From NCBI GenBank assembly GCA_027334565.1, contig DAHWUP010000006.1, forward strand, positions 1 through 46,620: a stretch of 46,620 nucleotides of DNA, read 5' to 3'. The DNA comes from Candidatus Levyibacteriota bacterium (GTDB lineage: Bacteria > Patescibacteriota > Microgenomatia > Levybacterales > UBA12049). Shown here piece by piece: positions 20,110 to 38,859 of this stretch. Every line of letters begins with the position of its first letter. The stretch's first letter is position 1. The notes under the pieces are model-generated. The model saw only the letters and a list, made by a program, of their open reading frames with translations, made no database searches and was not told the DNA's origin. Position numbers and translations under genes: made by a program.

Positions 20110-21393
<1,284 letters not shown>

Positions 21394-21449
21394 TTAAACA
21401 AAAAAATCGTTTAAAAGCAAGTTGTAAAAAGTGATACAATACCCTCGTT

Positions 21450-23129
21450 ATGGATGAGACACAGGAAATACGGGAAAAACTGGATCTGGTAAATTTTATT
21501 TCGGAGTATCTTCCGCTTAAAAAGGCGGGTCGTAATTTTAAGTCGAACTGCCCGTTCCATAACGAAAACACACCGTCGTTCGTTGTATCTCCGGAAAGAC
21601 AGATTTGGCATTGTTTCGGTTGCGGGAAAGGCGGAGATATATTCACGTTTTTGATGGAGTATGAAAGCATGGAATTCCCCGAGGCCTTAAGGGTCCTCGC
21701 GAAAAAAGCCGGAGTTACCCTAAGGGAATCGAGTTTTAAGCAGGGGCAATATTCGGAAAAAGAAAAGATATATTCGATTAACAGTCTGGCTTTAAAATTT
21801 TTTCATTATCTTTTAACCGAACATAAAGCCGGCCTATTTGCGCTTAAATATCTGACCGAGCAAAGAAAGGTCACCAAAGCTTCAATTAATACTTTTGAGA
21901 TAGGCTTTTCGCCAAATACCGGCACAGCTCTTTCCGACTTTTTAATTAAAAAAAAAGATTATACGAAACAAGATCTTATATTGGCAGGTATAGCCACGGA
22001 AAGGGGCGGACATGTATATGACTTTTTCAAAAACAGGCTGATGTTTCCCCTTTTTGATCACCGTGGGAACGTAACAGGATTTTCAGGACGAAGCCTGACC
22101 GACGATGACACACCAAAATATATCAATACCAAAGAAACTCCGGTGTATCATAAAGGAAGTATGTTTTTCGGGCTAAACAGTGCCAAAGACGAGATTAAAC
22201 AAAAACAGGATGTGATTATCGTTGAAGGAGAATTCGACGCGATCTCGCTTTTTCAAGAAAACATCAAAAACGTGGTGGCGATCAAGGGTACGGCGCTGAC
22301 CGAAAGTCAGGTTTCACTTCTAGCGAGGTTTACTTCCAAAGTGACCTTATGCCTGGATCAAGACACGGCGGGTTTTGAGGCAACAAGGAGAAGTCTCGAG
22401 ATTTTGGAAAAAAAGGGATTGACGTCGGACATTATTGTTTTAAATGAGGCCAAAGATCCGGATGAGGCAATCAAGGCAAATCCACAACAGTTTAAAAAAT
22501 CGGTTAAGGAAAAACACGGAGTATATGATTTTATGATTCAAAGGTTCGTCTCCTCAAATGACATTGACAGCGCACAGGGTAAAAAAGCAATTACCGACAA
22601 TCTGCTACCGCTATTTGCTAATATCCAAAACGAAATAATCAAGGAACATTATTTAAAACAATTGAGCAAAGTTTTGGACGTGACCTTTGACAGTTTAGCC
22701 AAGGAACTTGAAAAGCACCAAAATAAAGTTCAGGAAGAGAAAATAGTGGTTCCCCTTAAAAATAAAAGGGGTGAACGGGAAGTGATCGAAGAATTTACTC
22801 TGGCGTTGATTTTGCAAAGCAAGAATCCCAAGGAGATCATCGACGGATACAAAATTTTCTTTAAAAGTTATGTTTTTGAAACCGGTTCTTTGGGAAAATT
22901 ATTCAGAATGCTCATCGAATTTATTGAAACACAAACAAAATTTGACAGCAAGTTGTTTTCCAAGATCTTGCCAATCGAATTGATGCCTGCCTTTGACACT
23001 TGCAGTCTATATCCTTTATCCAAGTACGGTTTGGACGAGACAAACGAAGTGAAATATCGCCAGGAAATTACTAAAAAAATCGCCAGGCTTTCAGAGTATC
23101 ACCAAAAAGACCAGGCTAAAAAACAATAA
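21450..23129 (+). CDS. dnaG: DNA primase
   Basis: CPFHNENTPSF...HCFGC zinc finger, KYINT, VEGEFD, LCLDQDTAG TOPRIM, KDPDE. Confidence 0.98.
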   Translation: MDETQEIREKLDLVNFISEYLPLKKAGRNFKSNCPFHNENTPSFVVSPERQIWHCFGCGKGGDIFTFLMEYESMEFPEALRVLAKKAGVTLRESSFKQGQYSEKEKIYSINSLALKFFHYLLTEHKAGLFALKYLTEQRKVTKASINTFEIGFSPNTGTALSDFLIKKKDYTKQDLILAGIATERGGHVYDFFKNRLMFPLFDHRGNVTGFSGRSLTDDDTPKYINTKETPVYHKGSMFFGLNSAKDEIKQKQDVIIVEGEFDAISLFQENIKNVVAIKGTALTESQVSLLARFTSKVTLCLDQDTAGFEATRRSLEILEKKGLTSDIIVLNEAKDPDEAIKANPQQFKKSVKEKHGVYDFMIQRFVSSNDIDSAQGKKAITDNLLPLFANIQNEIIKEHYLKQLSKVLDVTFDSLAKELEKHQNKVQEEKIVVPLKNKRGEREVIEEFTLALILQSKNPKEIIDGYKIFFKSYVFETGSLGKLFRMLIEFIETQTKFDSKLFSKILPIELMPAFDTCSLYPLSKYGLDETNEVKYRQEITKKIARLSEYHQKDQAKKQ

Positions 23130-23178
23130 ACAAGAGCGTAAGGTTTTATTTGATGGTAAATTCTGCTAAAATTGTAGT

Positions 23179-24255
23179 GTGAAACAGCCCAACATTTTAA
23201 TCGAAATTGTTTCCGGTGCCAAAAAAAGAGGATACATCACCCAAGAGGAAATCCTTTCGATTTTTCCCCATCCCGAGGAACATATCAAAGAACTGGACCA
23301 GCTTTATGACAAGTTGATGCGTTCGGAAATCGATGTGTTCGAGTCGGTAGCGGCGGAGTCTGATGAAGAAAAACCGATTGAGGATTTGGAAAAAGAACTC
23401 GAAGCGCTGACGGTGTTAACCGAAGGGACGGTTTCCGATCCGGTGAGGATGTATTTGAAAGAAATCGGAAGGATCCCGCTTTTGACTTTTGACCAGGAAA
23501 TAAATCTTGCCAAAAAGGTCGAAAAAGGGGATAAGGCCTCAAAGCAAAAACTTATAAATTCTAATTTAAGACTGGTGGTCTCTATTGCCAAAAAATACGT
23601 CGGCAGGGGATTAACGCTTTTAGACCTGATCCAGGAAGGAAACCAGGGATTGATCAGGGCGGTTGAGAAGTATGACTGGAGAAGGGGCTATAAATTTTCA
23701 ACTTATGCCACATGGTGGATCAGGCAGTCCATCACCCGTGCCATCGCCGACCAAGCCAGAACCATCAGAATCCCGGTGCACATGGTCGAGAACATTAACC
23801 GTTTTTTGCGCGCTTCGAGAAAACTGATGCAGGAATTAGGCAGAGAACCCACCCCCGAAGAGGTTGCCAAAGCCTTAGGGATTGAGCCGGATAAAGCCTT
23901 GGAAATCATTAAGATCTCCCAGGAACCGGCCAGCCTTGAATCTCCCGTAGGGGATGAAGAAGATTCGCGTCTGGGTGATTTTATCCACGATACTTCCGCA
24001 CCGACTTTATTTGATACAGCGTCCAGGGAACTTTTAAAAGAGCAAATCGATCAAGTTTTATCAACCCTCTCCGATAGGGAAAAAAGGGTCTTGGAAGAAC
24101 GATTCGGACTTAAGGACGGAAGACCAAAGACCTTGGAAGAGGTTGGGAAAATGTTTGCCGTCACCAGGGAGCGCATCAGGCAAATCGAAGCAAAGGCTTT
24201 AAGAAAACTTCGCCATCCTTCTCGGGGCAATAAGCTTAAAGATTATTTGGGTTAA
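23179..24255 (+). CDS. rpoD: RNA polymerase primary sigma factor
   Basis: [41 protein letters not shown]...[16 protein letters not shown]. Confidence 0.98.
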
Positions 24256-24441
24256 GTTTTGGGACGTCAATTTCATACTCCGGTTTTACAAAATTATTAG
24301 AATACAAACAAAAAATTAATTTCACGAAGATAAAACTTAAAACGATTCAAGAACACAAAAGCAATACAAAACCCACGATATAACTTTAATCGGAGAGGTG
24401 TTTACTATTCCCTAATATGAGTAGTACTTGTGAGGATATTG

Positions 24442-24904: not shown

Positions 24905-24976
24905 TCCGCGATAGCTCAATGGTAGAGCGGCTCCCTGTTAAGGAGAAGGTTCTAGGTCCGAGTCCTAGTCGCGGAG
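24905..24976 (+). tRNA. tRNA-Asn(GTT), CCA not encoded
   Basis: Acceptor TCCGCGA/TCGCGGA, D-arm GCTC/GAGC, anticodon loop CTGTTAA, T-arm CTAGG-TCCGAGT-CCTAG, discriminator G. Confidence 0.93.
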
Positions 24977-25006
24977 CACTTCACTAAAGTCTGCTATCAT
25001 AAGCAT

Positions 25007-25471
25007 ATGAAGGCTCTCCCTTATGCTTTTTTAATTGGTGCTATTTTCTCCTTTTTTATATTTTTAACTAACGTTGTCTTTCCAAATAACGGACCCGATA
25101 ACGGAACAGCTGTCGGATTCACTTATTTAGTTTTATTTTCTCTTTTCGGTCTTGGTGGTTACATTAACAGCCGACAATCAAAGGATAAAATAAAAAGCGG
25201 AGCAGTGGGAGGAGCAATTACTGCCTTTATAGTTGTTGGACTGATTATGCTTACTTTTGCTTTTGTGGATAACGTTTTTTTAAGTACTGTTAGTAAGCAA
25301 GCTGATAAAATAGCAGGCTTTACTAATGCAAAGAACCAGTTTCATTCAATGCGAGATTATATAAATCACGGACTTTTGATGGGTTCAATTATCGTACTGC
25401 CGGTAGTAACAATTATTGGCGGTTTATTAGGAAGTATTGGGGCTTTTAGTAGAAGCGAGTTAAAGAAATAA
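25007..25471 (+). CDS. Four-TM hypothetical membrane protein (cassette 1 cargo)
   Basis: 154-aa hydrophobic ORF; TGc-TATCAT 6 nt upstream of ATG. Confidence 0.75.
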   Translation: MKALPYAFLIGAIFSFFIFLTNVVFPNNGPDNGTAVGFTYLVLFSLFGLGGYINSRQSKDKIKSGAVGGAITAFIVVGLIMLTFAFVDNVFLSTVSKQADKIAGFTNAKNQFHSMRDYINHGLLMGSIIVLPVVTIIGGLLGSIGAFSRSELKK

Positions 25472-25587
25472 GTTCTGACGTCGTCCATTAGGCGGAGCAA
25501 CTTATATTTATAACCTCAGAGATTGATGGACAGCATCATATTATACCTTGCTACAAATTTATCTAATAAGCTTCTATAATTAAAGAA

Positions 25588-25983
25588 GTGAAAACTCCAT
25601 CTGAAGAAACAGATGACATAATCAAGAATATACCTGATTGGCGAGGTAAAAAGTTGGCACAGCTTCGCTTTATCATTACAAAGGCTGATTCAGAGCTGGT
25701 GGAAGAAGTGAAGTGGAAAAAACCTTCCAAACCCGAAGGAGTTCCTGTTTGGTCACATGAGGGCACACTTTGTATAGGTGAGGCACTCAAAAACGCTGTT
25801 CGTTTGACATTCCCCAAGGGAGCGAAGGTTAAAGATCCAAAGAAGCTTTTCAATACACGGCTGGATAGCAGCAGTGTTCGCGCAATTGACTTCTTTGAAG
25901 ATGGAATAATTGATGAAGCTGCATTGACAAAACTTATCCAAGAAGCTGTGAAGGTAAATATGCAAAAAACAAAATTAACATGA
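25588..25983 (+). CDS. DUF1801 (YdhG-like) protein (cassette 2 cargo)
   Basis: DWRGKKLAQLR...EEVKW...GVPVWSHEG...VRLTFPKGA...DPKKLFN...RAIDF. Confidence 0.85.
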   Translation: MKTPSEETDDIIKNIPDWRGKKLAQLRFIITKADSELVEEVKWKKPSKPEGVPVWSHEGTLCIGEALKNAVRLTFPKGAKVKDPKKLFNTRLDSSSVRAIDFFEDGIIDEAALTKLIQEAVKVNMQKTKLT

Positions 25984-26351
25984 AAAGACCAATCTTCCTA
26001 ACAATATGGCTTATGTTACTGTTTCTCTTTGCTGTGGCTCTCACAGCTGATTCTCTTACCTATCTTCCTATGATACGTCTTACGAAAAATTACATTAGTC
26101 TTTTGGGAATTGCTGCTGGATTTGTACAAATATGGGCGGTAGTTCAATTACTTAGATGGAAAAAGGTAGGAGTAACACTTTTAGTATCCTCAGCAATTGT
26201 CATACTGTTGGTAACAGCTATTAATGAATTTTACCTAGTGTTAAAGATAAACCAAATACTTATCAGCATGGCAATGGTTTTGTTGGTTAACTTCATTATG
26301 TTTGGGATTTTATATTTGGCAATACGCCCAGTCTGGAAAAACTTCAAGTAA
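25980..26351 (+). CDS. Four-TM hypothetical membrane protein (cassette 2 cargo)
   Basis: 123 aa; ATGA overlap with the upstream gene; hydrophobic helices. Confidence 0.75.
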   Translation: MKRPIFLTIWLMLLFLFAVALTADSLTYLPMIRLTKNYISLLGIAAGFVQIWAVVQLLRWKKVGVTLLVSSAIVILLVTAINEFYLVLKINQILISMAMVLLVNFIMFGILYLAIRPVWKNFK

Positions 26352-26364
26352 ATAGTAAAAATTC

Positions 26365-26508
26365 CTAAATTGCTAGCGTTTTGGACCGTTGTAGCCTTTG
26401 AATTTCCTCCCACCTATGTTTCATCTCCCCAACATATCCAACATTAAACATTGGTTGTACTGCCGGTGCGTAATCTACTGGTATGAAGAAATGTGGCTCG
26501 GGGAGCAA
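26365..26508 (-). pseudogene. Antisense 47-aa peptide starting in the att-like repeat; putative recombinase C-terminal tail
   Basis: LLPEPHFFIPVDYAPAVQPMFNVGYVGEMKHRWEEIQRLQRSKTLAI*; homologous to 27320-27454. Confidence 0.55.
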
Positions 26509-26568
26509 ATTATTCTTAATATAATCTCTATTTGTTGATTTATTCCCAAATTGTGAGATGATTTAACT

Positions 26569-27330
26569 GTGGAAGAACAAATTAAGCAAAAATATCCAAC
26601 AGTTCATAAATATTTATTCACCGTAACTACTTTTTCAAAACTTCTAGCCATGTTTTTATTTATTTTTTTTCCATTTGTAGGATTTTATTTGGGAATGATA
26701 TATGAACAAGGAATCACAATAAATACATCAATTGTCTCGCTACCACAAAAAAATATAAAAATATTACTAAGTCCAACTCCAATAGCATCTATCTCGGGAA
26801 CAATTTCATCAAACTCAACCCTAAATTGGAAAACCTATACGAGCTCAAAATATAATTTATCATTCAAATATCCTTCAAATTGGAAATCTTACACAGAAGG
26901 TAAAATAACTTTGGTGCCTTTAAATAAAGTGCAGTATTTAGACTATGTCTCAGCTCCTATACAAATTGAATTTCAACAAAATCCCAATAAATTAACTTTA
27001 GATAAGTGGCAACAAGAAGAAAATGCAAAACTTATGGGAATCCCATACAATTATTACAATTCTAAATCAACACAAAAAACCACAATTAACGGATACACCG
27101 CTTATATTAATAAGAAGTCGGAAGATTGCGAACCAGTATTTTGTTACGAAGAAATAATTATGGATAATGAAAACATATTTATTTTTAAAAATTTGGATTT
27201 ATCCGGAACATTTCCAATTGGGACTGCTAGCACAGGCGCAACTTGGAAACAGATTTATTCAGAGGGAGATATTCAAACAAATCAACAAATTTTTGAAACT
27301 TTACTTTCAACCCTAAAATTCACGCGATAA
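26569..27330 (+). CDS. Membrane-anchored PsbP-like/secreted protein (cassette 3 cargo)
   Basis: TVTTFSKLLAMFLFIFFPFVGFYLG anchor; WKTYTSSKYNLSFKYPSNW and FETLLSTLKF motifs of PsbP-related CPR proteins. Confidence 0.75.
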   Translation: MEEQIKQKYPTVHKYLFTVTTFSKLLAMFLFIFFPFVGFYLGMIYEQGITINTSIVSLPQKNIKILLSPTPIASISGTISSNSTLNWKTYTSSKYNLSFKYPSNWKSYTEGKITLVPLNKVQYLDYVSAPIQIEFQQNPNKLTLDKWQQEENAKLMGIPYNYYNSKSTQKTTINGYTAYINKKSEDCEPVFCYEEIIMDNENIFIFKNLDLSGTFPIGTASTGATWKQIYSEGDIQTNQQIFETLLSTLKFTR

Positions 27331-27454
27331 GAGCATGATTTAACTGTAACTTCCTTATCTCTTCCCACCTTTCTCGTAATTCGCCAATATAGCTTAGATT
27401 TTGAAGTGAATTTATTACTTTTGCAGTTATAATAATCTAAGGACTGGGGAGCAA
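27320..27454 (-). pseudogene. Second antisense tail peptide, with one internal stop
   Basis: LLPSP*IIITAKVINSLQNLSYIGELRERWEEIRKLQLNHALIA*. Confidence 0.55.
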
Positions 27455-27485
27455 GCTTTTCTTCAAAAGCGTATACTTCTTTTAG

Positions 27486-27956
27486 GTTGTAAATCAACTT
27501 TTCAAAAGCATTCTGCATAACCTGGGCGTTGTGATAGTTGGGTTTATTTTTGCGTATATTGGTCTGGTGACAGATACATTACTAAAGATCCACGATTTTA
27601 GATTTGTTTATACATCCTTGATAGGCTTAATACTTTTAGTCATTGGGTTTTTAGTAAGGGTTTGGGCAACATACTATTTTTATAATAATTAAATGAAAGT
27701 TATTAAGCTTACGCCTCAAAATACCCTTATTACCGAAGGGCCTTTCCGTTATTCCAGAAATCCACTTTATCTCGGCGGGAATTTATTCATCTTTCTTGGA
27801 GCAGTTCTTGTTGTCGGTTCTCCGAGCTGTATCGTATTCACGTTTATTGAATTGGTATTAACAAATGTTATGATTAGCAGGGAAGAAAAACAACTAGAAC
27901 GAACCTTCGGGAGAGGATGGCTAGATTATAAAAAGCGAGTCCGCCGTTGGATATAA
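27486..27956 (+). pseudogene. Isoprenylcysteine carboxyl methyltransferase (ICMT/PEMT) family pseudogene
   Basis: In-frame upstream TM sequence VVNQLFKSILHNLGVVIVGF...LVRVWATYYFYNN, then TAA (27690-27692), then MKVI...LITEGPFRYSRNPLYLG...REEKQLERTFG...YKKRVRRWI. No start codon at the expected 5' end. Confidence 0.8.
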
Positions 27957-28084
27957 AAATAGGCATTAACGTAGTTCATCTCCCGGAACAACCCATGCTT
28001 AGATCTCTTCGGGCGGAAAAACAGTGTCTATAACCCCAAGATGAATGTTATAATGAACCTTATACGGACAACCTAAAGAAACAG

Positions 28085-28480
28085 ATGAACGCGAGTCAAG
28101 AAATAGATTCCATAATTAAAAAATCCAACGATTGGAGAGGCAAAAAATTGGCTCAACTGCGTATTGTAATCAAACAAGCAGACCAAGGGATAGTTGAAGA
28201 AGTGAAGTGGAAAAAACCGTCAAAACCTGAAGGGGTACCAGTTTGGTCGAGCAATGGCATACTCTGTGTTGCAGACATACTTAAAAACGCCGTGAGGTTG
28301 ACCTTTCCTAAGGGCGCACTTATGAAAGATCCAAAAAAACTTTTCAATACGAGGTTAGACAGTAAGACCGTTCGCGCCATCGATTTTTATGTAGATAATG
28401 TGCTAAATGAAGCTGCGCTTACAGAGCTCATTCACGAAGCAGTAATGATAAACGCTTTAAAATCAAGAAGCGATGAATGA
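28085..28480 (+). CDS. DUF1801 protein, close homologue of 25588..25983
   Basis: Shares VEEVKWKKPSKPEGVPVWS, LKNAVRLTFPKGA and KDPKKLFNTRLDS exactly. Confidence 0.85.
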   Translation: MNASQEIDSIIKKSNDWRGKKLAQLRIVIKQADQGIVEEVKWKKPSKPEGVPVWSSNGILCVADILKNAVRLTFPKGALMKDPKKLFNTRLDSKTVRAIDFYVDNVLNEAALTELIHEAVMINALKSRSDE

Positions 28481-28582
28481 GTTTCTGGCATTGATCATTT
28501 TTCGGTAATGTAAGGCGGCAGGAGAGACAACAAGAAATTATTTGAAAAAACACATTACGACACGAGATGTAGACAGGCTTAT

Positions 28583-29140
28583 ATGAAAACCACCGATCCT
28601 CAGAATGAAGTTTTTCCCATAGTTAATGAAAAAGATAAAGTCATAGGTAAAATAACCAGAAAAAAGGCACATCAAAACCACAATATTATTCATCGCGCCG
28701 TCCATGTTTTAATTTTTGATAATAAAGGAAGGCTGCTTATCCAAAAGAGGAGCCTAACAAAAGATACGGCGCCCGGTAGTTGGTGCGCGTCTTCCTCGGG
28801 TCATGTGGGATACCACGAAGATTATCTCCTTGGCGCAATTAGAGAAACAAAAGAGGAACTGGGAATAATTGTTAGGCCTGCCGAGCTTGAGTTGCTCGGG
28901 AAAATATTGGTGGTTGCCCCATGGGAGAAAGAGATGACTCAGGTATATAAGGTTATTCTCAGTAAAAAAGTTTCCATTAGTCCAAACCCGGAAGAAATCA
29001 CCAAGATACGATTTGTAGATTTAAAGACATTGCATATAATGCTAGAGCAGGAACTCTGGGCACCTTCTGATACACAAGTCTTGAATCGGTTCGTTTTGAA
29101 TCTAAATAATCTTGGCACGGATAGGAGATATAGCAGGTAA
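28583..29140 (+). CDS. NUDIX hydrolase (IDI/YfcD-like)
   Basis: IHRAVHVLIF, QKRS..KDTAPGSW, SGHV...AIRETKEELGI Nudix box. Confidence 0.9.
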   Translation: MKTTDPQNEVFPIVNEKDKVIGKITRKKAHQNHNIIHRAVHVLIFDNKGRLLIQKRSLTKDTAPGSWCASSSGHVGYHEDYLLGAIRETKEELGIIVRPAELELLGKILVVAPWEKEMTQVYKVILSKKVSISPNPEEITKIRFVDLKTLHIMLEQELWAPSDTQVLNRFVLNLNNLGTDRRYSR

Positions 29141-29197
29141 CATCGTTTATCTTCCAAATCCTGCCAGCTTTAAATACGCTTTTGATATAATTTTGGT

Positions 29198-29581
29198 ATG
29201 AAAAAATATTCCTCGGTTGAAGAGTATATTAGAAGTTATCCGCCTGATGTCAGAAAGAAACTACAGGCACTCAGAATAGCGATAAAAGAGGTGGTTCCGC
29301 CGCAAGCCATAGAAAAAATAAGTTACCAGATTCCGACGTTTTATTTAAACCAAAACCTCGTACATTTTGCGGCGTTTAAAGATCATATCAGTTTTTTTCC
29401 GACCAGCTCAGGCGTTGCCAAATTTAAGGAACAGCTATCAAGATACAAGCTATCCAGGGGGACGATACAAATTTCCTTGAATGAGGAATTGCCGATATCG
29501 TTAATTAAAAAAATTGTGAGATTCAGGGTTGAAGAAGTGTTGAAAAGGAAAGAGCAAAAAGGTTTGCTAAAAGGGTCATAG
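29198..29581 (+). CDS. DUF1801 / YdhG-type iron-chaperone-like protein
   Basis: SVEEYI...EKISYQIPTF...LVHFAAFKDHISFFP...SRGTIQ...LPISLIKKIV. Confidence 0.88.
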   Translation: MKKYSSVEEYIRSYPPDVRKKLQALRIAIKEVVPPQAIEKISYQIPTFYLNQNLVHFAAFKDHISFFPTSSGVAKFKEQLSRYKLSRGTIQISLNEELPISLIKKIVRFRVEEVLKRKEQKGLLKGS

Positions 29582-29648
29582 ATACTCTTTGAGCGGAACT
29601 TGTCCAATTTGTCGGCCCGGATTCTCAAACAACAAAAGTATAGGTTGC

Positions 29649-29897
29649 CTAGTTGTCTCCCGCTTCGCCTCCAACATTGACTCTGTACCCGGGATGTAAA
29701 ATCGGTACGGGGGTTGAGGTGGGCAACAAAGTTGGTGTGCCTGTCGGCAATGTTTGTTTAGTTGCCTGGTTAGCCGCGTTCACGCCACTGTTATTGATTT
29801 TATTCTTAGGTTGTAAATTCGTAATCGTCTGAAGGGAGCTCAATAGTACAATCAAAGCCAAAAAGATAAATAGGGCAATAATAAATTTATTATTCAT
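29649..29897 (-). CDS. Small secreted/membrane-anchored Pro-Thr-rich protein
   Basis: Signal/TM then PTGTPTLLPTSTP; TGc-TATACT 7 nt upstream of ATG. Confidence 0.65.
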   Translation of the reverse strand: MNNKFIIALFIFLALIVLLSSLQTITNLQPKNKINNSGVNAANQATKQTLPTGTPTLLPTSTPVPILHPGYRVNVGGEAGDN

Positions 29898-29923
29898 TCA
29901 TATAAGTATAGCATAGCTTAAAA

Positions 29924-31444
29924 TTAGACATATCCGGGAAAGAAGTCTTTTTTTATTTGTGTTCGTGGAACTCCCATCTTTGAAAGAAGTTCTTCATATC
30001 CTGTTACCATCGGATGGGGACCAGAAAGATAGAAGATGCATTTCTTATGGTCCGGTATAATTTCGTTGATCATCTCGGATGTGACCCGGCCAATTTTCCC
30101 CGTCCATCCCTTGGGAGCCGCTTTTTCATCGGTAAGGGTTAAGACGGTTTTTACGCCAACTTTTTTTGCTTCTTCCAAAACGTCAAGGTATGCGATTTCG
30201 GATTGGATTTTATTGGCATAGAACAGGACGATTGGACGATTCTGACGCGTATCAAGGCAGTATTTAATCATACTTCTAAAAGGAGTTATCCCTATGCCCC
30301 CGGCTAAGAAAACAAGTTTAACTTCCCGATCGTTAGGTAATGTGAAGTCGCCCGCGAGGTTTCCCGCAACAATCGGAGTGTTCCCGTCAAGGTTTATCAG
30401 CGCTTTCTTGAAGCTACTGCCCTGAGGATTAAATTTTACACCCAGATGTATCGAATCTTCTGTCGGTGAAGAGGCTATCGTAAAAAAGCGTCTATTTCCC
30501 CTGCTGTCGGGATCGGTATGAGGTAGGGTCCATTCCATATATTGTCCGGGCGAGAAGGTGAATCTCCCCGATGACGGAGCGAAGATAAAGTCCACCACGT
30601 CAGAGCCATATTGTACTTTTTCTTTTAAATATAAAAACAGTTTTTGCTTCGGGCTTACGAGATAAGAGAAGATATTGCCCGTAACAAGGGCAAGTTCGGG
30701 GGTTGAATAAAGGGTTCCAAGGTGGACGTGTGGAGAAAATAAAAACCCGACCAAACCACCGTAAAATAACCGCAGGTCTCTTGTCGGAGGGGTTGTGAAC
30801 GGTTCGGTCAACATGATAAACGCAAAGAACAGCATAGATGAATGGAAAACAAGAGTGGTAAGTGTATTTAACATATTTCCTCCGAAATACAGGGTGAAAA
30901 AAGCTTCGGTGGCAAAAGCGACAAGGAAAAAAGATAATGCCATATCTTCGCGTCGGATTTTCCTGATTATCAAGATTCCGATAGCCAAGATAAAAGGCGT
31001 CATAGCCGTTGTGCCCAACCACCAGTTTGCGGAATCGCCTAACCAGAGAGCGGTCAAAGCTACCGCAATAGCTACGGGATTAAAAATGTGCTTGCGATTG
31101 ATCGCTAAAATATATTTTGACGACATCGCAAGAACGGGAGCCCAGAAAAGGATCAGAAGATCATTAATGCCTCTAAAGGGTGGAACAATAAGGACCAGGA
31201 TAAGGGCTGTTATATACGCGGACTCCACATTCGTCGGTGCGTTGAAAACAATTGAAAATATACCGTTGGTAACCATGGCTAAAAAAAGAATGAAAGCGGT
31301 AGAAAAAAGAATCGAGCCGGGAGAATAAGGCAAGATATTTAAAAATCCGAACAGTATGGCAATTAACACCAGCGCGATCAACCCATACAGTACCAACCGG
31401 TACATAGTGATGCGATCAAGGATATTATCTATAATCTTAGTCAT
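29924..31444 (-). CDS. NqrB/RnfD-like membrane domain fused to ferredoxin-NAD(P) reductase-type FAD/NAD-binding domain
   Basis: SKY...KHIFNPVA and FIMLTEPFTTP (RnfD-like); RRFFTIASSP, LAGGIGITPFRSM, FYLSGPHPMV (FNR family). Confidence 0.88.
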   Translation of the reverse strand: MTKIIDNILDRITMYRLVLYGLIALVLIAILFGFLNILPYSPGSILFSTAFILFLAMVTNGIFSIVFNAPTNVESAYITALILVLIVPPFRGINDLLILFWAPVLAMSSKYILAINRKHIFNPVAIAVALTALWLGDSANWWLGTTAMTPFILAIGILIIRKIRREDMALSFFLVAFATEAFFTLYFGGNMLNTLTTLVFHSSMLFFAFIMLTEPFTTPPTRDLRLFYGGLVGFLFSPHVHLGTLYSTPELALVTGNIFSYLVSPKQKLFLYLKEKVQYGSDVVDFIFAPSSGRFTFSPGQYMEWTLPHTDPDSRGNRRFFTIASSPTEDSIHLGVKFNPQGSSFKKALINLDGNTPIVAGNLAGDFTLPNDREVKLVFLAGGIGITPFRSMIKYCLDTRQNRPIVLFYANKIQSEIAYLDVLEEAKKVGVKTVLTLTDEKAAPKGWTGKIGRVTSEMINEIIPDHKKCIFYLSGPHPMVTGYEELLSKMGVPRTQIKKDFFPGYV

Positions 31445-31445
31445 T

Positions 31446-31952
31446 TTAATGCGCTTGTGCCAGAGCCGAAGCGAGTGACGCCTGGAAGGCCTGGCTTGTA
31501 TCCGACGCTCCGGACACGATGTCCACTTGGGCAGATTGTGCCTGAATTGCTTCTTGTTTGAGATAGGGCATTGCCTGTGTATTTATTGCAATCGAAGTGC
31601 TTCTGTCATTGGGATATTGTAAAAAAACCACGTCCGTTATTCTCCCCCCGCCAATAACCACCTGTATTTGAACATTTCCGTAAAATGCATCCGCAACGCT
31701 CCCGGTATAAGTACCGTCTTTATATTGACCCTGCGAAGTCGGAGGCGTGGTTGATCCGCTCGCCTGGGTAGTTGTAGGAGTTGACTGTGAAGACGGATTT
31801 CCCAGACTGTTTTGCGTAGAGCCAGTAACCTGGTTATTTGCGTTCTGCGGCGGCGGAATAGTTAAGGGGGTGGAATTCGCCAACTCTTGCCTCAATAATC
31901 CGTTAACAATAAACAAGCCTATCACAAACGTGGAAAGTAGTAGTTTTTTCAT
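31446..31952 (-). CDS. Extracytosolic FMN-binding (flavinylated) protein
   Basis: Signal MKKLLLSTF, S/T-rich linker, YKDGTYTG...YGNVQIQV...VDIVSGASDTS ([S/T]GA[S/T] flavinylation motif). Confidence 0.9.
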   Translation of the reverse strand: MKKLLLSTFVIGLFIVNGLLRQELANSTPLTIPPPQNANNQVTGSTQNSLGNPSSQSTPTTTQASGSTTPPTSQGQYKDGTYTGSVADAFYGNVQIQVVIGGGRITDVVFLQYPNDRSTSIAINTQAMPYLKQEAIQAQSAQVDIVSGASDTSQAFQASLASALAQAH

Positions 31953-32177
31953 ATAAAACCTCAGGATAAAAAATCTTTTATAAGTATACATTTTTTTAGC
32001 GACAATAACCATGTTTTAGGCCGTGAATATAAGTGAAATAAAATCTTATAAAAACCGATCTTTTCATGAATAGCCGGTTTATTGCGCAGGATCTATAAAA
32101 CGAAATACAAGGTTTTTAGCCCCAGCTTTGAATTATTGAAATATAGTGAGATAATAAAACCGGAGCGGAAAGTTTTT

Positions 32178-32831
32178 ATGAATAATCCAGTAAGTGGTGA
32201 AGCGGAAAAATTTCAATTAGGGCATCATATTTGTTCCATATTTAATACAAACGAGCAGCAGTTTTTGCCATTAATTTCTTTTTTCAACGAAGGTTTAACT
32301 TCCAAACAAAAATGTTTATATATTCTTGGCGCACAGACAGCATACGATGTTATTAACGAATTTGATTCAAGAGGGGTAAGGGTCAGGGATTATGCCGATT
32401 CCAAACAACTCGTATTCCTTACAAAAGACGAGACTTATCTAAGGGACGGATATTTCGAGGCGGATAAGATGATATCGATCATAAAAAAAATTGAAAATCA
32501 AAGTCTTTCTGAAGGCTATACGGGAGTCCGGGGCAGCGGTGATATGACATGGGCAATCGGTGACCCCTTGGTTAAAGAAAAAATGTTCAATTATGAAATT
32601 AAATTAAACCAATTATTATCCGAAGGGAAAATAGCAGCGTTCTGCCGTTATGATGAGCGTAAATTTCCAAAGGAATTACTAATTAAAGCAATCAGGACCC
32701 ATCCTTACCTAATAATCTACGGAAAATTTTATGAGAATAAATATTTCTATTCTCCACCCGAATACGTTTCTAATGAGGATTTACCGGACGAGTCTTACGA
32801 AACGATTATAAGCTTGATAACGGAAAACTGA
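32178..32831 (+). CDS. Stand-alone MEDS (DcmR-type sensory) domain protein
   Basis: GHHICSIF...FFNEGL...ETYLRDGYFEADKM...GYTGVRGSGDMTW...YE...CRYD...THP. Confidence 0.85.
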   Translation: MNNPVSGEAEKFQLGHHICSIFNTNEQQFLPLISFFNEGLTSKQKCLYILGAQTAYDVINEFDSRGVRVRDYADSKQLVFLTKDETYLRDGYFEADKMISIIKKIENQSLSEGYTGVRGSGDMTWAIGDPLVKEKMFNYEIKLNQLLSEGKIAAFCRYDERKFPKELLIKAIRTHPYLIIYGKFYENKYFYSPPEYVSNEDLPDESYETIISLITEN

Positions 32832-32939
32832 TTATTTTCAGTTAATCGATGCATTATCGGATTGAATATCCAAACCCCGAACAAATAAGAATGGCAGGCT
32901 TGATTAAAAAGTGCTTGTCTGCTATTGTATCCTGTGCCT

Positions 32940-34367
32940 ATGTTCCCAAAGTCTATTTGTTTTGTAGACGTTGAAACCTCCGGTATCAGTCCCAGGTTTA
33001 ACCGGATCATCGAAATCGGGATAATAAAAGTCGTTAACGGTAAAGTGGTTAAAGAATTCAGCAGTCTTGTTAATCCGGGGTCGTTTGTCGATCCTTACAT
33101 AGAAGGATTAACCGGTATAAGCAGGGATGATCTTAAGAGAGCACCATTTTTTTATGAGGTCAAAGACGAACTTCTGGAAATGTTCGAGGATTCAGTTTTT
33201 GCGGCTCACAGCGTCCGGTTCGACTACGGTTTTGTCCGAAACGAATTCCGCAGACTTGGTGTTAATTTCACAGCTAAGCATCTTTGTACGGTCAAACTCG
33301 CCCGGTTATTATATCCAAACCTGAAGAAATTTAACCTGGACAGCATCATCGAAAATTTTGACATCGAATGCAAAAGAAGACACCGGGCTTTGGATGATGC
33401 AAAAGTGATTTACAAGTTTTACGAGCAATCAAAGGCGGGCATACAGAAAGATTTATTCAACAAGGCTGTTATGATGGTATTAAGGCGCCCAAGCGTTCCG
33501 ATCGGTATTAATTCAACTGACATTGATAATCTTCCGGAAGCCGCCGGAGTTTACATCTTTTACGGCGATAACGGTTCCATTCTTTATATCGGCAAGAGCA
33601 TAAATATTAGGGAGAGGGTGCTGTCACATTTTTCCAATGACCACCTTTCCTTGACCGACATGAAAATTTCCCAGCAGGCAAGGTCGGTCGAGGCAATCGA
33701 AACAGCAGGGGAATTGAGCGCGCTTTTATTGGAATCAACCTTAATCAAAAATCACCGGCCATTATATAACCGGATGTTAAGGGATGCCCAAAAAGTAGTG
33801 GTGCTTTTAAAAGGTGCAAATGCAAAAGGTTATTCCACGGGTTCGAAGAAGATTTTAGACAAAGTCCCGGCAGAGCAAGCAACGAGCATATTGGGAGTGT
33901 TCCGTTCGGAAAGACAGCTTAACGATTTCTTATATAATCTCGCCAAGGAAAATAAACTTTGTCCTAAACTGTTGGGCCTTGATAAAAGCACCAAGCATTG
34001 TTTTTATTATCATCTGGGGCAATGCAACGGCGCCTGCTGTCAAGAGGAATCTAGCTTAAAATACAACCTTCGTTTCGAACAAGCATTTTATAAAACCAAG
34101 CTTAGACACTGGATTTTTGACAGCCCCGTTTTGATAAAAGAAAAAGGCAATAAAGAAGAAATACACCTAGTCGATAAATGGTGTTATTTAGGAAGCGTCA
34201 AAAAAGGTGAGGAGGGCAATATTGATCTGAATAGGGAATACCGCTTCGACCTTGATACCTATAAAATCTTGGTAAAATATATGATGAACCCGCGAAACCA
34301 GAAAAATATTTCGCCTTTAAGACCAAGGATAGCCGGCAGGTTCTCAAAAGTAACCTTAAATGATTAA
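32940..34367 (+). CDS. DEDDh 3'-5' exonuclease (Pol III epsilon-like) fused to GIY-YIG (Cho/UvrC-like) domain
   Basis: VDVETSG, AHSVRFDYGF, HRALDDA; LPEAAGVYIFY...LYIGKSINIRERVLSHF...PLYNR; Cys cluster. Confidence 0.9.
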   Translation: MFPKSICFVDVETSGISPRFNRIIEIGIIKVVNGKVVKEFSSLVNPGSFVDPYIEGLTGISRDDLKRAPFFYEVKDELLEMFEDSVFAAHSVRFDYGFVRNEFRRLGVNFTAKHLCTVKLARLLYPNLKKFNLDSIIENFDIECKRRHRALDDAKVIYKFYEQSKAGIQKDLFNKAVMMVLRRPSVPIGINSTDIDNLPEAAGVYIFYGDNGSILYIGKSINIRERVLSHFSNDHLSLTDMKISQQARSVEAIETAGELSALLLESTLIKNHRPLYNRMLRDAQKVVVLLKGANAKGYSTGSKKILDKVPAEQATSILGVFRSERQLNDFLYNLAKENKLCPKLLGLDKSTKHCFYYHLGQCNGACCQEESSLKYNLRFEQAFYKTKLRHWIFDSPVLIKEKGNKEEIHLVDKWCYLGSVKKGEEGNIDLNREYRFDLDTYKILVKYMMNPRNQKNISPLRPRIAGRFSKVTLND

Positions 34368-34372
34368 ACTGT

Positions 34373-34648
34373 TTACTTTTGGTAAAGTTTTCTGAGTTCT
34401 GCCTTTGCCTGTTCGAGAATTCTTTTTTTCTCCGGCCTTAAATTTTTTCCCGCCCGATTGATATAAAAATTCAGCATGCTCATGGCCGATTGAAATGGGG
34501 GCGCCTTTCGCCTTGTGCTTTGTTCAGCCGAATTTTTCAAGCTTTCAGCGATTTTTTTAGGATTATTCCAAGTGAACACTCCTTCTTCAAGATCAAGAGC
34601 GATACTATGCTTTGTTACTCCGGAAGACCAGTTTTTCGCTATTGTCAT
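34373..34648 (-). CDS. DUF3175 family protein
   Basis: WS..VT..S.ALDLEEGVFT...IAESLK.SAE.S.RRKA.PFQSAMSMLNFYINRAGKNL. Confidence 0.85.
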   Translation of the reverse strand: MTIAKNWSSGVTKHSIALDLEEGVFTWNNPKKIAESLKNSAEQSTRRKAPPFQSAMSMLNFYINRAGKNLRPEKKRILEQAKAELRKLYQK

Positions 34649-34694
34649 ACATTAATTTAAGTATCGATTATAAACTTGGGCTCTTTTAAATTTA

Positions 34695-35204
34695 TCATCT
34701 TGAACAGTATGGCCAGGCGCTTTGTTCTCCCCTTGAGATTTTAAAGGCGGCGGTCTTTATCGATTCTTCGGGATCGTTGCGAAGGGTAAGGCTTGTATCC
34801 TGGCCCATTAAAGCCCGGCTGTTGATCCAGGCGCTGCTTGAGAATTGAAAAAGACCAACATAATCTCCATTTACCGCATTGGGATTGAATCCGGATTCAC
34901 AACCGGCAATTTTTACCAACAGATTCCTATCAACGCTATAGAGATTGGCATATTTGGTAAATAATTCGTCAAGTTCCGCCGAACTCAGTGGTATTGGGGA
35001 AGGGGTGGGAGTCGGTGTGGGTGTCGTTGACGGAGAAGGAGTCGGTGTGGGTGTTGATGTTGGTTGCGGGGTAGGAGTAGGGAAAGCAAACCCTTTTTTG
35101 GCCAGCGGAGATACTATGATACCGTTTTGTTGGTGGTAAGACAAAAGGAAAAGACCTGAAACCAGCAATATCATTACGAAGATAATACTTAACCCGAATT
35201 TCAT
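34695..35204 (-). CDS. Membrane-anchored lysozyme-like/transglycosylase (SLT/Rpf-like) protein with PT linker
   Basis: TM, (PT)n linker, IAGCESGFNPNAVNGDYVGLFQF...AWPYC. Confidence 0.85.
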   Translation of the reverse strand: MKFGLSIIFVMILLVSGLFLLSYHQQNGIIVSPLAKKGFAFPTPTPQPTSTPTPTPSPSTTPTPTPTPSPIPLSSAELDELFTKYANLYSVDRNLLVKIAGCESGFNPNAVNGDYVGLFQFSSSAWINSRALMGQDTSLTLRNDPEESIKTAAFKISRGEQSAWPYCSR

Positions 35205-35260
35205 AGACAGGTTTTAATTGCGTTTAACGGCAGTTTTTGTTCGTATCTTTCAAACGGAAA

Positions 35261-35620
35261 TTAATCATTTGTTTGCGTTTGGGCTGCGGTCGAGATCTCA
35301 AGCATTTTTAGCCGGTCTCTTTTCTCAACCGTCTTGCTCCATTTTTCGGTTAGTTTGTTGTTTTTCTCTAAAGCTTGTTCGAAGACAGCGTTCTCGTCAA
35401 TCCGCTTATTTCTGAAATTCTTGAGTTTAGTAAAAACAGTTGCGTCGGATTTACCGGCTTTTGTTAAAAAATACACCCCAACACCGATTAAAGCAAGTGC
35501 CAAAAATAACAGTAAAATGCTGGTTCCTTTGTTCAAACCTTCGACATAAATATAGATCGTCTGAATTCCCAATGCGGATAATATTAGGCCTAAAGCCGTT
35601 CTTAACAATACCAATTTCAT
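35261..35620 (-). CDS. Two-TM hypothetical protein
   Basis: 119 aa; two hydrophobic helices then a charged coiled region; TATGCT 8 nt upstream of ATG. Confidence 0.7.
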   Translation of the reverse strand: MKLVLLRTALGLILSALGIQTIYIYVEGLNKGTSILLLFLALALIGVGVYFLTKAGKSDATVFTKLKNFRNKRIDENAVFEQALEKNNKLTEKWSKTVEKRDRLKMLEISTAAQTQTND

Positions 35621-35673
35621 CTAATTTAAGCATAACCGATTGCTAAATAATCCGCAAGACAAATATCATATAA

Positions 35674-35868
35674 TCACCCTATGTCCACGCAAGACTGATA
35701 CTGGTTGACGGTAATTATGTATATGTGGGGTTAGTTAACCTATCGACTCAAAGTTTGGATCAAAACCGTGAAATTGGAATAATGCTTTCGGGTAAGGAAG
35801 GGATTAAGTTGCTTTCGTCGACCTTTGAAAAGGACTGGAATTTGGCGATGGATTATAATTCAAACTAG
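35674..35868 (+). pseudogene. Phospholipase D (HKD) domain fragment
   Basis: Hand translation SPYVHARLILVDGNYVYVGLVNLSTQSLDQNREIGIML...TFEKDW; preceded by TAA, no start, HxK>HxR. Confidence 0.75.
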
Positions 35869-35877
35869 GCGGTTAAT

Positions 35878-36018
35878 ATGGAAGAAATTAAAGTAAATAA
35901 CAAAAAGCTCAAGAAGTTACTGCAAAGCGGTGGCAGAAAAGGGGCACAGGAGGATTTCACTGAACTATTAAAACGGTCGGTCCGCTTCAGCAGACTTATG
36001 AAGAAAGGTAAGGACTAA
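35878..36018 (+). CDS. Possible 46-aa basic peptide
   Basis: MEEIKVNNKKLKKLLQSGGRKGAQEDFTELLKRSVRFSRLMKKGKD; its stop overlaps that of the convergent IS1595-like gene. Confidence 0.4.
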   Translation: MEEIKVNNKKLKKLLQSGGRKGAQEDFTELLKRSVRFSRLMKKGKD

Positions 36019-36470: not shown

Positions 36471-36570
36471 AATTTTAATATATTGAAGCTATCCACGTGT
36501 TGTCAAGGGATAATTTTTAAAATTGCCTATTGACGGCTTTATAGCTTTCTGTTTTAATGGGTTTAACTTA

Positions 36571-38859
36571 ATGAAAAACACTGTCAGTTTTTATATCGAT
36601 AAAATTATCACATATTTACTCCTTGCGGTTGCAGTAATCACCCCATTACTATTTTTTAACCAAACCACAGAATTTTACGAAATGCCTAAAATGTTTTTCT
36701 TGGTGGTGGCAACCGTTGTCCTTGTAGGCCTTTGGATTTTTTCCTGGATTGTCAAGGGCAAGGTTATTATCAATAGAACGCCTTTGGATATTCCGTTGTT
36801 GGTTCTATTGGTTGTAGTTTTGCTATCCACCTATTTTAGTGCCAACATCTACCCGGCCATTTACGGGAGTTTGCCCAGGGTTCACGGGTCCGCTGTTTCA
36901 TGGGTAACTTATATTCTATTATATTTTGTGGCAGCCTCAAACCTGAAAGGCATAGCGGAAATTAAAAATTTCCTTTACGCCTTAATGGGGGGTGCGGTTG
37001 TCGTTGCCTTGGTGACGCTTGCCGCCTTCTTTAAATTATATTTGCCGTTTGATTTTGCCCAAGCCGTCAATTTCACTCCCACGGGATCGTCGTTTTCGAC
37101 CGCCGCGTTACTTCTAATGCTTTTACCCTTGCCGCTTCTGTCGCTGGCAAAACAAAATAAATATTTACCGATCCCCGTATCACTTTTTTTGACCATCCTT
37201 TTTTCGGCCGTAATTGCCTTAATTAGTTCCTTATGGGTTGATGTGCTCTTGGTCCTGGTTTATGCACTGACCGCTTTCGTTGCAAAACCGCACCAGGTAA
37301 AGAAGACTCTGGGCGTCTTCCTGGTGCCGGTTGCAACCACGGCCTTGGTGTTCATCCTAGCGTACGCGCCTTTCCCCGGTAACGTCGTGCAATCGCTTGA
37401 GGCAAATTTCCCCAAAGAGATACAATTGCCTTTAGAAGTTTCCTGGAAAATCAGCGCCTCCGCCTTTAGGGACGCACCCTTCATCGGCACCGGTCCATCA
37501 AGCTATCTATTCAACTTCACAGCCTATAAGCCGCTCGAGTTCAACCAGCTGAATGTATGGAGTTTCTCTTTTGATACCGCATTCAATGAATTCCTGCAGG
37601 TCTTGGGTACGCTTGGTTTCTTCGGATTCATGGGATTGTTGGTCCTATCACTGGTGGTTATCGCGCATGGCTGGAGATTACTCTCAGCCAATACCGCAAG
37701 CCAGGCGCAGGACGTATCAAGGATTCTAACTACCGGATTGGCAATCAGCGGATTGACGACGATCGCATTATTATTGGTACACGCGACAACACTCGTTTCC
37801 TTTGTAATAATGCTGTTTGTCCTGGCGTCATTTATGATGTCCCAGGACCACGTCAGGGAAAAAGTGCTGGAATTTTCAATCGGCATAAAAGCTTTGACCT
37901 CGGAGAATAAACAATTCGATTTATTCCCGATTGTTGTTTTTATAGTCTACTTAATACTGGCAGTACCGGTTTTATTTAAAACCGCCAGCGTGGCGATGGC
38001 GGATTACTATCATCGACAGGCCCTATCTCAGGCCAACAAGAACGGCACCTTGACCTATCAATACCTGCAAAAAGCAGAACAACTCGCCCCGGAAATGGAT
38101 CTGTACAGGGTAGATATGGCGCAGACGAACTTTGCTCTGGCAAACGCTTTGGCCTTGCAAAAAGGACCGACCAAAGACAATCCGCAGGGAACCTTAACAA
38201 ACAGCGACAAACAGACCATCCAAACCCTTTTGTCACAGGCTATCAATGAAGGCAGGGTAAGCGTTGTCTTAAGCCCGAGATCGGCAAGGAACTGGGAAGT
38301 GCTGGCATCAATTTATCAGAATATCACCGGAGTGGCCCAAAACGCACTCGCATTCGCCCTTGACGCATACAATGCGGCTATCCAAAGAGACCCGGTCAAT
38401 CCCGCCCTGAGGCTTAGCGTTGGAGGAATCTATTATGCTGTCAAAAATTATAACCTGGCGACCAGATTCTTTACCGACGCGATCAATCTAAAACCCGATT
38501 ACGCCAACGCCTATTATAATTTGGCTCTAGCAGACAGGGATAATAATGACCTTCAGGATGCAGCTTTGGTGTCCAACCAACTCGTGATACTGTTGCAGAA
38601 AAACAGTCCAAATAGCGCCAATCTTAAAGCAGCACAAACATTATATAACGATATAAAAAACCAGATAGCATCCAATAATCAAGCGGCACAAGAACAACAA
38701 GCGTCGAGCCAGAAAGCCCCTCTTCAGAACTCGAATATTTCGGGGGTGAATGTTTCCAACCTGCAAAATGCGCCTAAGGTAACGGTGCCGACCCCGGTTA
38801 AAAGTAATCCTAACGCTAACATTCCTCAATTGAGTCCGACCCCGACCCCTACGCCATAA
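36571..38859 (+). CDS. O-antigen ligase/Wzy_C-like polytopic membrane protein with C-terminal TPRs
   Basis: FYEMPK, RTPLDIP, W...PFIGTGPSSY, AFNEFLQVLGTLG, ~12 TMs, TPRs (AINLKPDYANAYYNLA), PTPTP tail. Confidence 0.85.
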   Translation: MKNTVSFYIDKIITYLLLAVAVITPLLFFNQTTEFYEMPKMFFLVVATVVLVGLWIFSWIVKGKVIINRTPLDIPLLVLLVVVLLSTYFSANIYPAIYGSLPRVHGSAVSWVTYILLYFVAASNLKGIAEIKNFLYALMGGAVVVALVTLAAFFKLYLPFDFAQAVNFTPTGSSFSTAALLLMLLPLPLLSLAKQNKYLPIPVSLFLTILFSAVIALISSLWVDVLLVLVYALTAFVAKPHQVKKTLGVFLVPVATTALVFILAYAPFPGNVVQSLEANFPKEIQLPLEVSWKISASAFRDAPFIGTGPSSYLFNFTAYKPLEFNQLNVWSFSFDTAFNEFLQVLGTLGFFGFMGLLVLSLVVIAHGWRLLSANTASQAQDVSRILTTGLAISGLTTIALLLVHATTLVSFVIMLFVLASFMMSQDHVREKVLEFSIGIKALTSENKQFDLFPIVVFIVYLILAVPVLFKTASVAMADYYHRQALSQANKNGTLTYQYLQKAEQLAPEMDLYRVDMAQTNFALANALALQKGPTKDNPQGTLTNSDKQTIQTLLSQAINEGRVSVVLSPRSARNWEVLASIYQNITGVAQNALAFALDAYNAAIQRDPVNPALRLSVGGIYYAVKNYNLATRFFTDAINLKPDYANAYYNLALADRDNNDLQDAALVSNQLVILLQKNSPNSANLKAAQTLYNDIKNQIASNNQAAQEQQASSQKAPLQNSNISGVNVSNLQNAPKVTVPTPVKSNPNANIPQLSPTPTPTP

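Follow-up and report, generated by a model that had tools for sequence, protein, structure and literature searches.

Probable remnants of serially inserted serine-recombinase islands at the tRNA-Asn 3′ end of a Candidatus Levyibacteriota genome

The DNA stretch considered here (the window) comprises 46,620 nucleotides of a Candidatus Levyibacteriota bacterium (assembly GCA_027334565.1, contig DAHWUP010000006.1) and corresponds to contig C34 of a genome (G000) of 902,291 bp in 37 contigs with 42% G+C. Behind its tRNA-Asn gene, short units of one or two same-strand genes follow each other, each closed by a repeat that resembles the tRNA 3′ end; in two of the units this repeat begins a segment, termed tail in the following, which would be the coding end of a large serine recombinase (LSR) gene. 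The window most probably carries a decayed stack of at least three islands that were inserted serially by LSRs at the tRNA-Asn 3′ end and have since lost their integrases. The features of the array are as follows.

24905-24977 (+), tRNA-Asn(GTT), called by ARAGORN, Rfam score 65 bits, directly after dnaG and rpoD
24969 (+), repeat copy 1, the tRNA end, TCGCGGAGCA
24971-24978 (+), tRNA-Asn acceptor-end core GCGGAGCA; LSR open reading frames (ORFs) of relatives read antisense into the tRNA-Asn 3′ end
25007-25471 (+), unit A cargo, putative membrane protein of 154 amino acids; ORF with sub-threshold Pfam matches only
25472-25499 (+), closing site of unit A, predicted distal junction of a type-2 LSR island
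25490 (+; core at 25492), repeat copy 2, AGGCGGAGCA, 8/10, GTCC-N5 retained
25500-25587 (no strand), post-junction flank, 18/19 identity to the relative G001 from the core on
25588-25983 (+), unit B cargo, DUF1801 protein (Pfam PF08818, 9.4e-18)
25980-26351 (+), unit B cargo, hydrophobic protein of 123 amino acids (ORF)
26365-26508 (-), predicted LSR tail copy 1, closing unit B; intact 47-codon frame LLPEPHFF...GYVGEMKHRWEEIQRLQ
26498 (+; core at 26500), repeat copy 3, TCGGGGAGCA, 9/10
26569-27330 (+), unit C cargo, PsbP-like protein (Pfam PF18933, PsbP_2; 2.6e-6, score 28 bits, cut-off 27)
27320-27454 (-), predicted LSR tail copy 2, closing unit C; LLPSP*IIITAKVINSLQNLSYIGELRERWEEIRKLQ, with the core GGGGAGCAA at 27446-27454
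27444 (+; core at 27446), repeat copy 4, CTGGGGAGCA, only 7/10 and outside the listing of matches with up to two mismatches

The four motif copies lie at the positions and in the + orientation in which an earlier, sequence-only reading of the window had placed them. Its statement that they are always intergenic is correct only in part, since an 8/10 copy at 25195 and the words GGAGCA at 25211 and 27798 are in-frame Gly-Ala codons of + strand ORFs; the copies 26500 and 27446 themselves are contained in short frames of the minus strand. The 10-mer with up to two mismatches is not enriched window-wide (30 found versus 25.3 expected). Counted over both strands, the genome contains 36 copies of the octamer G[CG]GGAGCA, five of them on the + strand of 24971-27453; the Poisson probability of at least four extra copies is P = 1.3e-7, a value that is generous because the motif was chosen post hoc. 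Outside ORFs of at least 90 amino acids (104,081 non-ORF bases searched), 7 of the 36 copies are found, namely the tRNA end, the three window copies, a tail each on contigs C26 and C37, and, likewise on C37, a 3′ fragment of tRNA-Asn. The cluster is far from chance, and the motif belongs to this insertion system; with all seven non-ORF copies accounted for, it is not equally frequent in random intergenic DNA. The boxes resembling a -10 element that had been seen between core and cargo are without meaning. A promoter reading was rejected, because promoter-like sites are at background level (17 versus 15.1 expected) and the spacing from GGAGCA to a TATAAT-like box varies from 3 to 18 nt.

When the spacers were compared with the genome by BLAST, 27377-27455 was found to recur twice on C37 and once on C26. 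A DNA profile of the four copies, run with nhmmer, independently recovered a fifth one at 26388-26513 (E 4.3e-7), with tail copy 2 scoring 3e-34. This type-1 repeat of about 120 nt is thus present in five genome copies, and it begins at the cores 26500 and 27446; on the minus strand it starts with TTG-CTC-CCC, the reverse complement of GGGGAGCAA, located at 26500-26508 in tail copy 1. The encoded peptide, LP.P.I.I...FQNLSYIGE(L/M)RQRWEEIKKLQ, has about 45 residues. Tail copy 1 is recognized by a hidden Markov model of the tail protein with E 1e-19 and differs from the other copies mainly by conservative replacements, while tail copy 2, which is interrupted by an in-frame TAG at 27437-27439, shows 81% identity across 36 residues with the C-terminal end of the LSR P0034 (578 amino acids). 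Across 63 tail copies, conservation has a period of three bases with third-position wobble, from which it follows that the tail sequence evolved as coding sequence. A tRNA-derived origin of the repeat was discarded, the tail not being tRNA-like beyond GGAGCA; the same applies to a structured RNA or attC-like hairpin, for there is no stable fold on either strand and no Rfam family except the tRNA. A phmmer search of the PDB gave no match. An exact 13-mer, ATGATTTAACTGT, lies on either side of the PsbP-like gene, at 26551-26563 and 27336-27348; its second copy encodes the last tail residues (LQLNH), and the first copy may be what is left of a further tail, though chance is possible.

Homologues of the tail peptide in metagenomes comprise 29 small proteins of 41-92 amino acids. 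The set of tail loci used here contains 58 loci in species-representative genomes, most of them titled as Microgenomates-type members of the candidate phyla radiation (CPR), with ten titled "Gammaproteobacteria" and four Saccharibacteria/Saccharimonadales. A tRNA gene is within 4 kb of 9 of the 58 loci; it is downstream and antisense in all nine and is tRNA-Asn(GTT) in seven. The layout at these nine loci is uniform and lacks an integrase: the tRNA is followed, after a gap of 38-203 nt, by one to seven genes and then by the tail. Wherever a contig carries several tails, these share one orientation (3/3 contigs of the 58-locus set, plus relative G013, the window and C37). As a separate observation, neighboring tails in other CPR genomes can be only 0.6-2.3 kb apart (4001-4141 and approximately 4585-4734 at locus L003; approximately 1640-1766 and 4001-4135 at L004), so that tail-bounded units of very short length also exist outside this genome.

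The origin of the tail is indicated by full-length proteins. The peptide forms the in-frame C-terminus of L027 and L045, which are proteins of 531 and 554 amino acids with Resolvase, Recombinase and zinc-ribbon domains, and two further tail fusions are found among longer proteins (P0034 and P0036; 578 and 535 amino acids). While identity between the two LSR bodies is 25%, their tails are far more alike. The LSR of relative G015, 46% identical to that of L027, tracks the latter up to the residues W-L, whereupon codons antisense to the tRNA replace the tail. In an AlphaFold model of the L027 LSR (alignment of seven sequences; mean predicted local distance difference test score, pLDDT, 72) the body folds to about residue 480 and the tail is drawn as a helix at pLDDT 32-51; according to this model, the tail would be an extension past the canonical LSR fold, with a helix of low confidence. 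On these homologies, the copies 26500 and 27446 are to be regarded as the first codons of the C-terminal segment of the recombinase itself and not as tRNA-derived DNA. The absence of an integrase, as noted in the sequence-only reading, therefore holds for intact genes but not for gene ends, two of the copies being the 3′ coding ends of integrase genes. No intact LSR gene (Resolvase, Recombinase and zinc-ribbon) was found in the window, only C-terminal coding fragments, and the window is consequently classed as island remnants rather than a live LSR island.

Recombinase genes do exist elsewhere in the genome, where that reading had recommended to look for one. An intact LSR of 522 amino acids (C31:99085-100653, minus strand) reads antisense into tRNA-Lys(CTT), and another LSR gene (C37:24780-25934, minus strand), truncated where the contig stops, runs into tRNA-Gln(TTG). 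An LSR gene reading into a tRNA end is a general design in this genome. Neither of the two resident enzymes is of the tail family. A genome search with PF00589 (Phage_integrase) yielded two tyrosine recombinase genes, on C22 and C32, neither of them near the array. The one at C32:42371-42844 (minus strand) is about 250 nt from tRNA-Ile(TAT) at 42046-42118 and may mark another integrative element.

Relatives were anchored on rpoD, which is present in 38 of the 41 genomes searched (G000 counted); the 5-16 kb downstream of it were compared in 20 relatives, and in 11 of these tRNA-Asn falls within the compared stretch. In 5 of the 11 (G002, G005, G013, G015 and G018), an LSR gene converges on tRNA-Asn and reads antisense into its 3′ end, the ORFs ending in ..MLRD*, ..LLRDQDSNLEP* or ..WLLREDSNLRPIA*. 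In G024, the LSR reads into a tRNA-like end that is left uncalled by ARAGORN. Since the LSR ORF switches to tRNA-antisense codons at the tRNA end, the attachment site would lie inside the LSR gene. The attP-bearing form, in which body, core and tail are in frame, is represented by L027, L045, P0034 and P0036, while the integrated LSRs end in tRNA-antisense codons.

Both ends of such islands can be recognized in relatives. In G013, the LSR is at the tRNA with GCGGAGC, and a tail plus GGGGAGC lies 18.7 kb away in the predicted orientation and frame; a second tail is located 8.8 kb beyond. In G002, which is of the same genus as the genome studied, the core GCGGAGCAT is found at the tRNA and again 11.8 kb away. 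The cargo of the G002 island includes an LSR (Pfam), a helix-turn-helix regulator, an Eco57I-like methylase and a signal peptidase-CAP protein/secreted proteins; among the 10 ORFs scanned there were no phage or conjugation genes. Islands with their own LSR thus measure 11.8-18.7 kb in relatives. The frame relative to GCTCC is identical at both junctions in 3/3 islands (G013, G002 and G005). An attL and an attR sharing a short core with the target are present in G002 and G013, and the window cores at 24971, 25492, 26500 and 27446 are in direct orientation. By comparison of these sequences, the 3′ acceptor end of tRNA-Asn would be the chromosomal attachment site, as had been proposed for the window, and the repeats would be recombination junctions. 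A phage origin was also considered and dropped, the tail having no relatives in the viral contig collection searched and the scanned G002 island ORFs containing no phage genes.

The copy at 25492 stands apart. The arm at 25472-25499 has the structure GTTCT-N6-GTCCAT-N3-GCGGAGCA and reads LLRLMDDVRTYF in antisense. The LSR islands of G002 and G005 carry the same arm and peptide ([LM]LR[LR][MI][DE].[VE]RTYF) at their far ends (MLRRMDYVRTYF, LLRLIESERTYF), so that the retention of GTCC-N5 noted earlier at this copy is borne out by its relatives. It is outside the tail family and, on this resemblance, would be the matching junction of a second LSR type. From the 25492 core on, 18 of 19 bases are as in G001 after a displaced tRNA-Asn 3′ fragment, with patchy similarity for about 80 nt beyond; 25500-25587 may be the ancestral sequence downstream of tRNA-Asn in the genus. 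A fifth junction at 27970-27999, matching the type-2 arm in 17/30 positions by eye, was rejected because the alignment of the spacers lacks significance, being equalled by 83 of 500 shuffles.

The region behind the tRNA varies strongly, and three more features are needed for its description.

24978-36015 (no strand), variable hotspot of about 10-11 kb, from tRNA-Asn to the next block conserved with G001 (DNA search)
27455-27544 (-), candidate remnant of an LSR body, comprising its terminal ~30 codons (weak; aligns with one of four LSR queries, two stops)
27531-29581 (+), further accessory genes, PEMT/ICMT-like, DUF1801, NUDIX and DUF1801 (Pfam); past 27454 no site resembling att was found

Both G001 and G002 match positions 20120-24256 and the tRNA. 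Continuous colinearity resumes at 36016, with short patches from 34711 onward matching within the variable stretch of G001. An identical gene order in relatives, named beforehand as an argument against insertion, was not found: the hotspot content is unrelated in the same-genus genomes G001 and G002, and gene order is hence not shared.

What was observed is the build of the junctions, the homologies and the layout across genomes; from these we infer a crossover at the shared GCTCC, an order of insertions and a loss of LSR bodies by deletion. According to this scheme, the attachment site of the island would coincide with the codons (W/L)-L-(P/R) of the LSR gene, where the opposite strand reads ..GGAGCA(A), i.e., the tRNA end. 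Recombination would leave the LSR body at the tRNA, reading antisense into it and gaining a short tRNA-encoded end. The natural C-terminal segment of the enzyme, the tail, would be moved to the far end of the island, in antisense and with a core copy behind it. Additional insertions would stack units, each closed by tail plus core. In the present genome, the LSR bodies would then be gone, leaving one type-2 junction, two type-1 tails and the cargo between them. Stacking is common, same-orientation tail arrays being present in other genomes and on C37, which agrees with the repeated insertion at the tRNA end that had been suggested for the window.

The array on contig C37 deserves separate description. 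At G000:C37:17940-20451 (locus L002), two genes, a tail, one gene and a tail follow each other in the same layout as in the window. It is preceded by tRNA-Arg(TCT) and, after about 130 nt, by a 19-nt tRNA-Asn 3′ fragment, GAGTCCTAGCTGCGGAGCA, at approximately 20250.

Several points weigh against decayed LSR islands. No LSR body is left in the window, and the possible remnant at 27455-27544 is weak; its K-K-Y-T...S-LLP spacing does match the R-L-Y-A...W-LL of G015 and P0036. The last unit is not closed by a far-end junction, no match of at least 13/20 to the tRNA end being found between 24990 and 36600. The C37 array is behind tRNA-Arg with only the 19-nt fragment of tRNA-Asn. Next to the tRNA, relatives carry a full LSR or none, partial LSR pieces being found elsewhere (L021, L004 and L032); this bimodality and the gaps of 38-203 nt between tRNA and cargo are poorly predicted by random decay. 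LSRs normally need an intact attB, whereas the later insertions would have had to use an occupied site. Finally, no recombination event has been observed: in the assembled contigs of three runs from one study, among them probably the source run, excision or deletion joints were found at none of the cores, and such contigs drop rare variants and cannot show rare forms. In one low-depth run, contigs break at 27437-27445.

The compactness of the units somewhat favors a cleaner process or cassettes that naturally lack an integrase. In this alternative, the short integrase-less units (0.5-1 kb, consisting of core, arm, one or two genes, tail and core) would be non-autonomous cassettes moved in trans by split-tail LSRs, a proposal that we consider unlikely, though it fares best among the rivals. 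It would account for the compact units with intact ORFs, for internal junctions that each keep tail, core and a few LSR-end codons like an attP site, for the integrase-less layout and short gaps at 9/9 tRNA-linked tail loci, and for the full-LSR-or-none pattern beside the tRNA; an intact LSR is also available elsewhere in this genome. However, no cassette was seen at high identity in two contexts, and shared tail-plus-cargo units are about 80% identical, a level like that of rpoD, which fits vertical descent. The resident LSRs at tRNA-Lys and tRNA-Gln fall outside the tail family. Relatives contain full islands of both junction types, so that decay suffices as an explanation, and pseudogene debris is expected to disappear from streamlined CPR genomes. 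A broader version is no less doubtful, according to which the units would be minimal cassettes forming a class of their own in nature, captured, stacked and exchanged at tRNA ends by split-tail serine integrases acting in trans, with stored tails being re-used to complete incoming or neighboring integrase genes. If true, ultra-small CPR bacteria would possess in this class an equivalent of the integron that is based on serine recombinases.

A further, very improbable reading would take the tails for small genes in their own right, or for a dispersed, unrelated repeat starting with TTGCTCCCC, whose resemblance to the tRNA end is coincidental. In favor of this, an upstream LSR fusion is missing at 55 of the 58 tail loci, gene callers label tails as hypothetical small proteins, and the frame at 26365-26508 is intact. 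Against it stand the in-frame fusion to four different LSRs, the change of an orthologous LSR to tRNA codons at exactly the tail start, the uniform tRNA geometry (9/9) with its tRNA-Asn association (7/9), the G013 island with an LSR at one end and a tail at the other, and start codons and upstream sequence that are unconserved. The possibility that a short G+C-rich word merely recurs by chance among A+T-rich spacers, to which the window-wide 10-mer count (30 versus 25.3) and the 7/10 fourth copy might point, is ruled out for practical purposes by the repeat profile search, the type-2 arm homology and the non-ORF motif count, given that 5 of 36 genome octamers are in 2.5 kb on one strand, that 104 kb of non-ORF DNA hold zero unrelated copies and that each copy has extended homology elsewhere.

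Parts of the favored scheme of decayed LSR islands have parallels in other systems. The Myxococcus phage Mx8 also targets tRNA genes. Its attP is described as lying within int, and the int gene of the prophage is a recombinant one whose 3′ end is new (PMC6070905). The likeness consists in the attachment site inside the integrase coding sequence and in the new 3′ end upon integration; the difference is that Mx8 Int is a phage tyrosine recombinase, whereas here the enzymes are island LSRs with no phage genes seen, and the displaced tail is a conserved module of about 45 residues left as a scar. Reportedly, the integrases of the Sulfolobus spindle-shaped virus (SSV) type also have tRNA targets and leave captured remnants ("gene capture"; She et al. 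2001). These "suicidal" tyrosine integrases have the site inside their own gene, which is fragmented on integration, and a 2021 review calls them exclusive to archaea (PMC8371274). The archaeal tyrosine recombinases are split mid-gene, whereas in the present system only a C-terminal extension past the predicted LSR fold would be exchanged. The enzymes described here carry a Resolvase (serine) catalytic domain and no tyrosine recombinase catalytic domain and are, being serine recombinases, not members of the tyrosine-integrase families.

Elements of the staphylococcal cassette chromosome (SCC) type are inserted by Ccr at the 3′ end of rlmH, with an att site outside ccr, and we know of no displaced recombinase tail in them. 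In SCC composite islands, serine-recombinase elements are arranged in tandem at the 3′ end of one conserved gene, with PsiSCC beside ccr-bearing SCCs (10.1101/336396). The array stacks like SCC, some units lacking a recombinase, but it is not a member of this group, the target being tRNA-Asn and not rlmH. Integrons possess IntI and attI, which are absent from clusters of attC sites lacking integron integrases (CALINs), and the attC sites are imperfect palindromes that fold as single strands. Small same-strand genes, a recurring site between them and no adjacent integrase are common to integrons or CALINs and the array, yet the recurring site here would be a protein-coding integrase fragment, and there is no IntI near the array. 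Both strands of both spacers were no more stable in an attC fold than shuffles (z +0.08 to +1.08). Lacking an attC fold and IntI, the array is neither an integron nor a CALIN, and its description in the sequence-only reading as integron-like without attC sites has to be given up in view of the 11.8-18.7 kb islands with their own LSR to which such junctions belong in relatives. Islands of tyrosine integrases at tRNA 3′ ends, including the asn-tRNA islands of enterobacteria, show direct repeats of the tRNA end and tandem accretion. The tRNA 3′ target, the direct repeats at the far junctions and the tandem accretion are shared with these; the recombinase class is different, and identity to the tRNA here extends over only about 8 nt and a partial mimic of the arm. 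In a literature search, in which subscription journals and supplements were not covered, no published description of this split-tail LSR arrangement was found.

With this interpretation, "hypothetical small proteins" at 58 CPR loci would be explained as displaced integrase ends, which could be used as markers of past insertion. The tRNA-Asn end would represent a hotspot of gene flux in bacteria with tiny genomes, about 10 kb being unrelated even within a genus, and a stacked example of several types would be added to the serine integrases with an attachment site in their own gene. Such integrases, pairing with short, predictable tRNA targets, could serve as genetic tools for CPR bacteria, and the tail swap would provide a switch, open to testing, between the free form of the enzyme and the integrated one.

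As to the cargo, the DUF1801 and PsbP-like assignments made from the sequence hold by Pfam, and the two "membrane" ORFs have no family above the Pfam cut-off. The unit A protein of 154 amino acids has no homologue at the compared locus of the 20 relatives. The PsbP-like query gave no match in G001, G002, G024 and G005 and two weak partial matches in G021 (3e-7 and 6.9e-6). Farther along the contig, ARAGORN calls an 80-nt tRNA-Arg(TCT) at 38556-38635 (minus strand) inside a 778-codon + strand ORF (36523-38859); it is not tRNA-like and the call is probably spurious. The PEMT/ICMT-like methyltransferase gene at 27531-27956 (+) is split into frames of 53 and 87 codons by an in-frame TAA at 27690-27692 and is probably a pseudogene. 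Three DUF1801 paralogues are found within 4 kb (25588-25983, 28085-28480 and 29198-29581), the first two with 70% DNA identity over 300 nt. DUF1801 genes are also located downstream of tRNA-Asn in G019, G016, G006 and G007, and one such gene may be an ancestral neighbor of tRNA-Asn.

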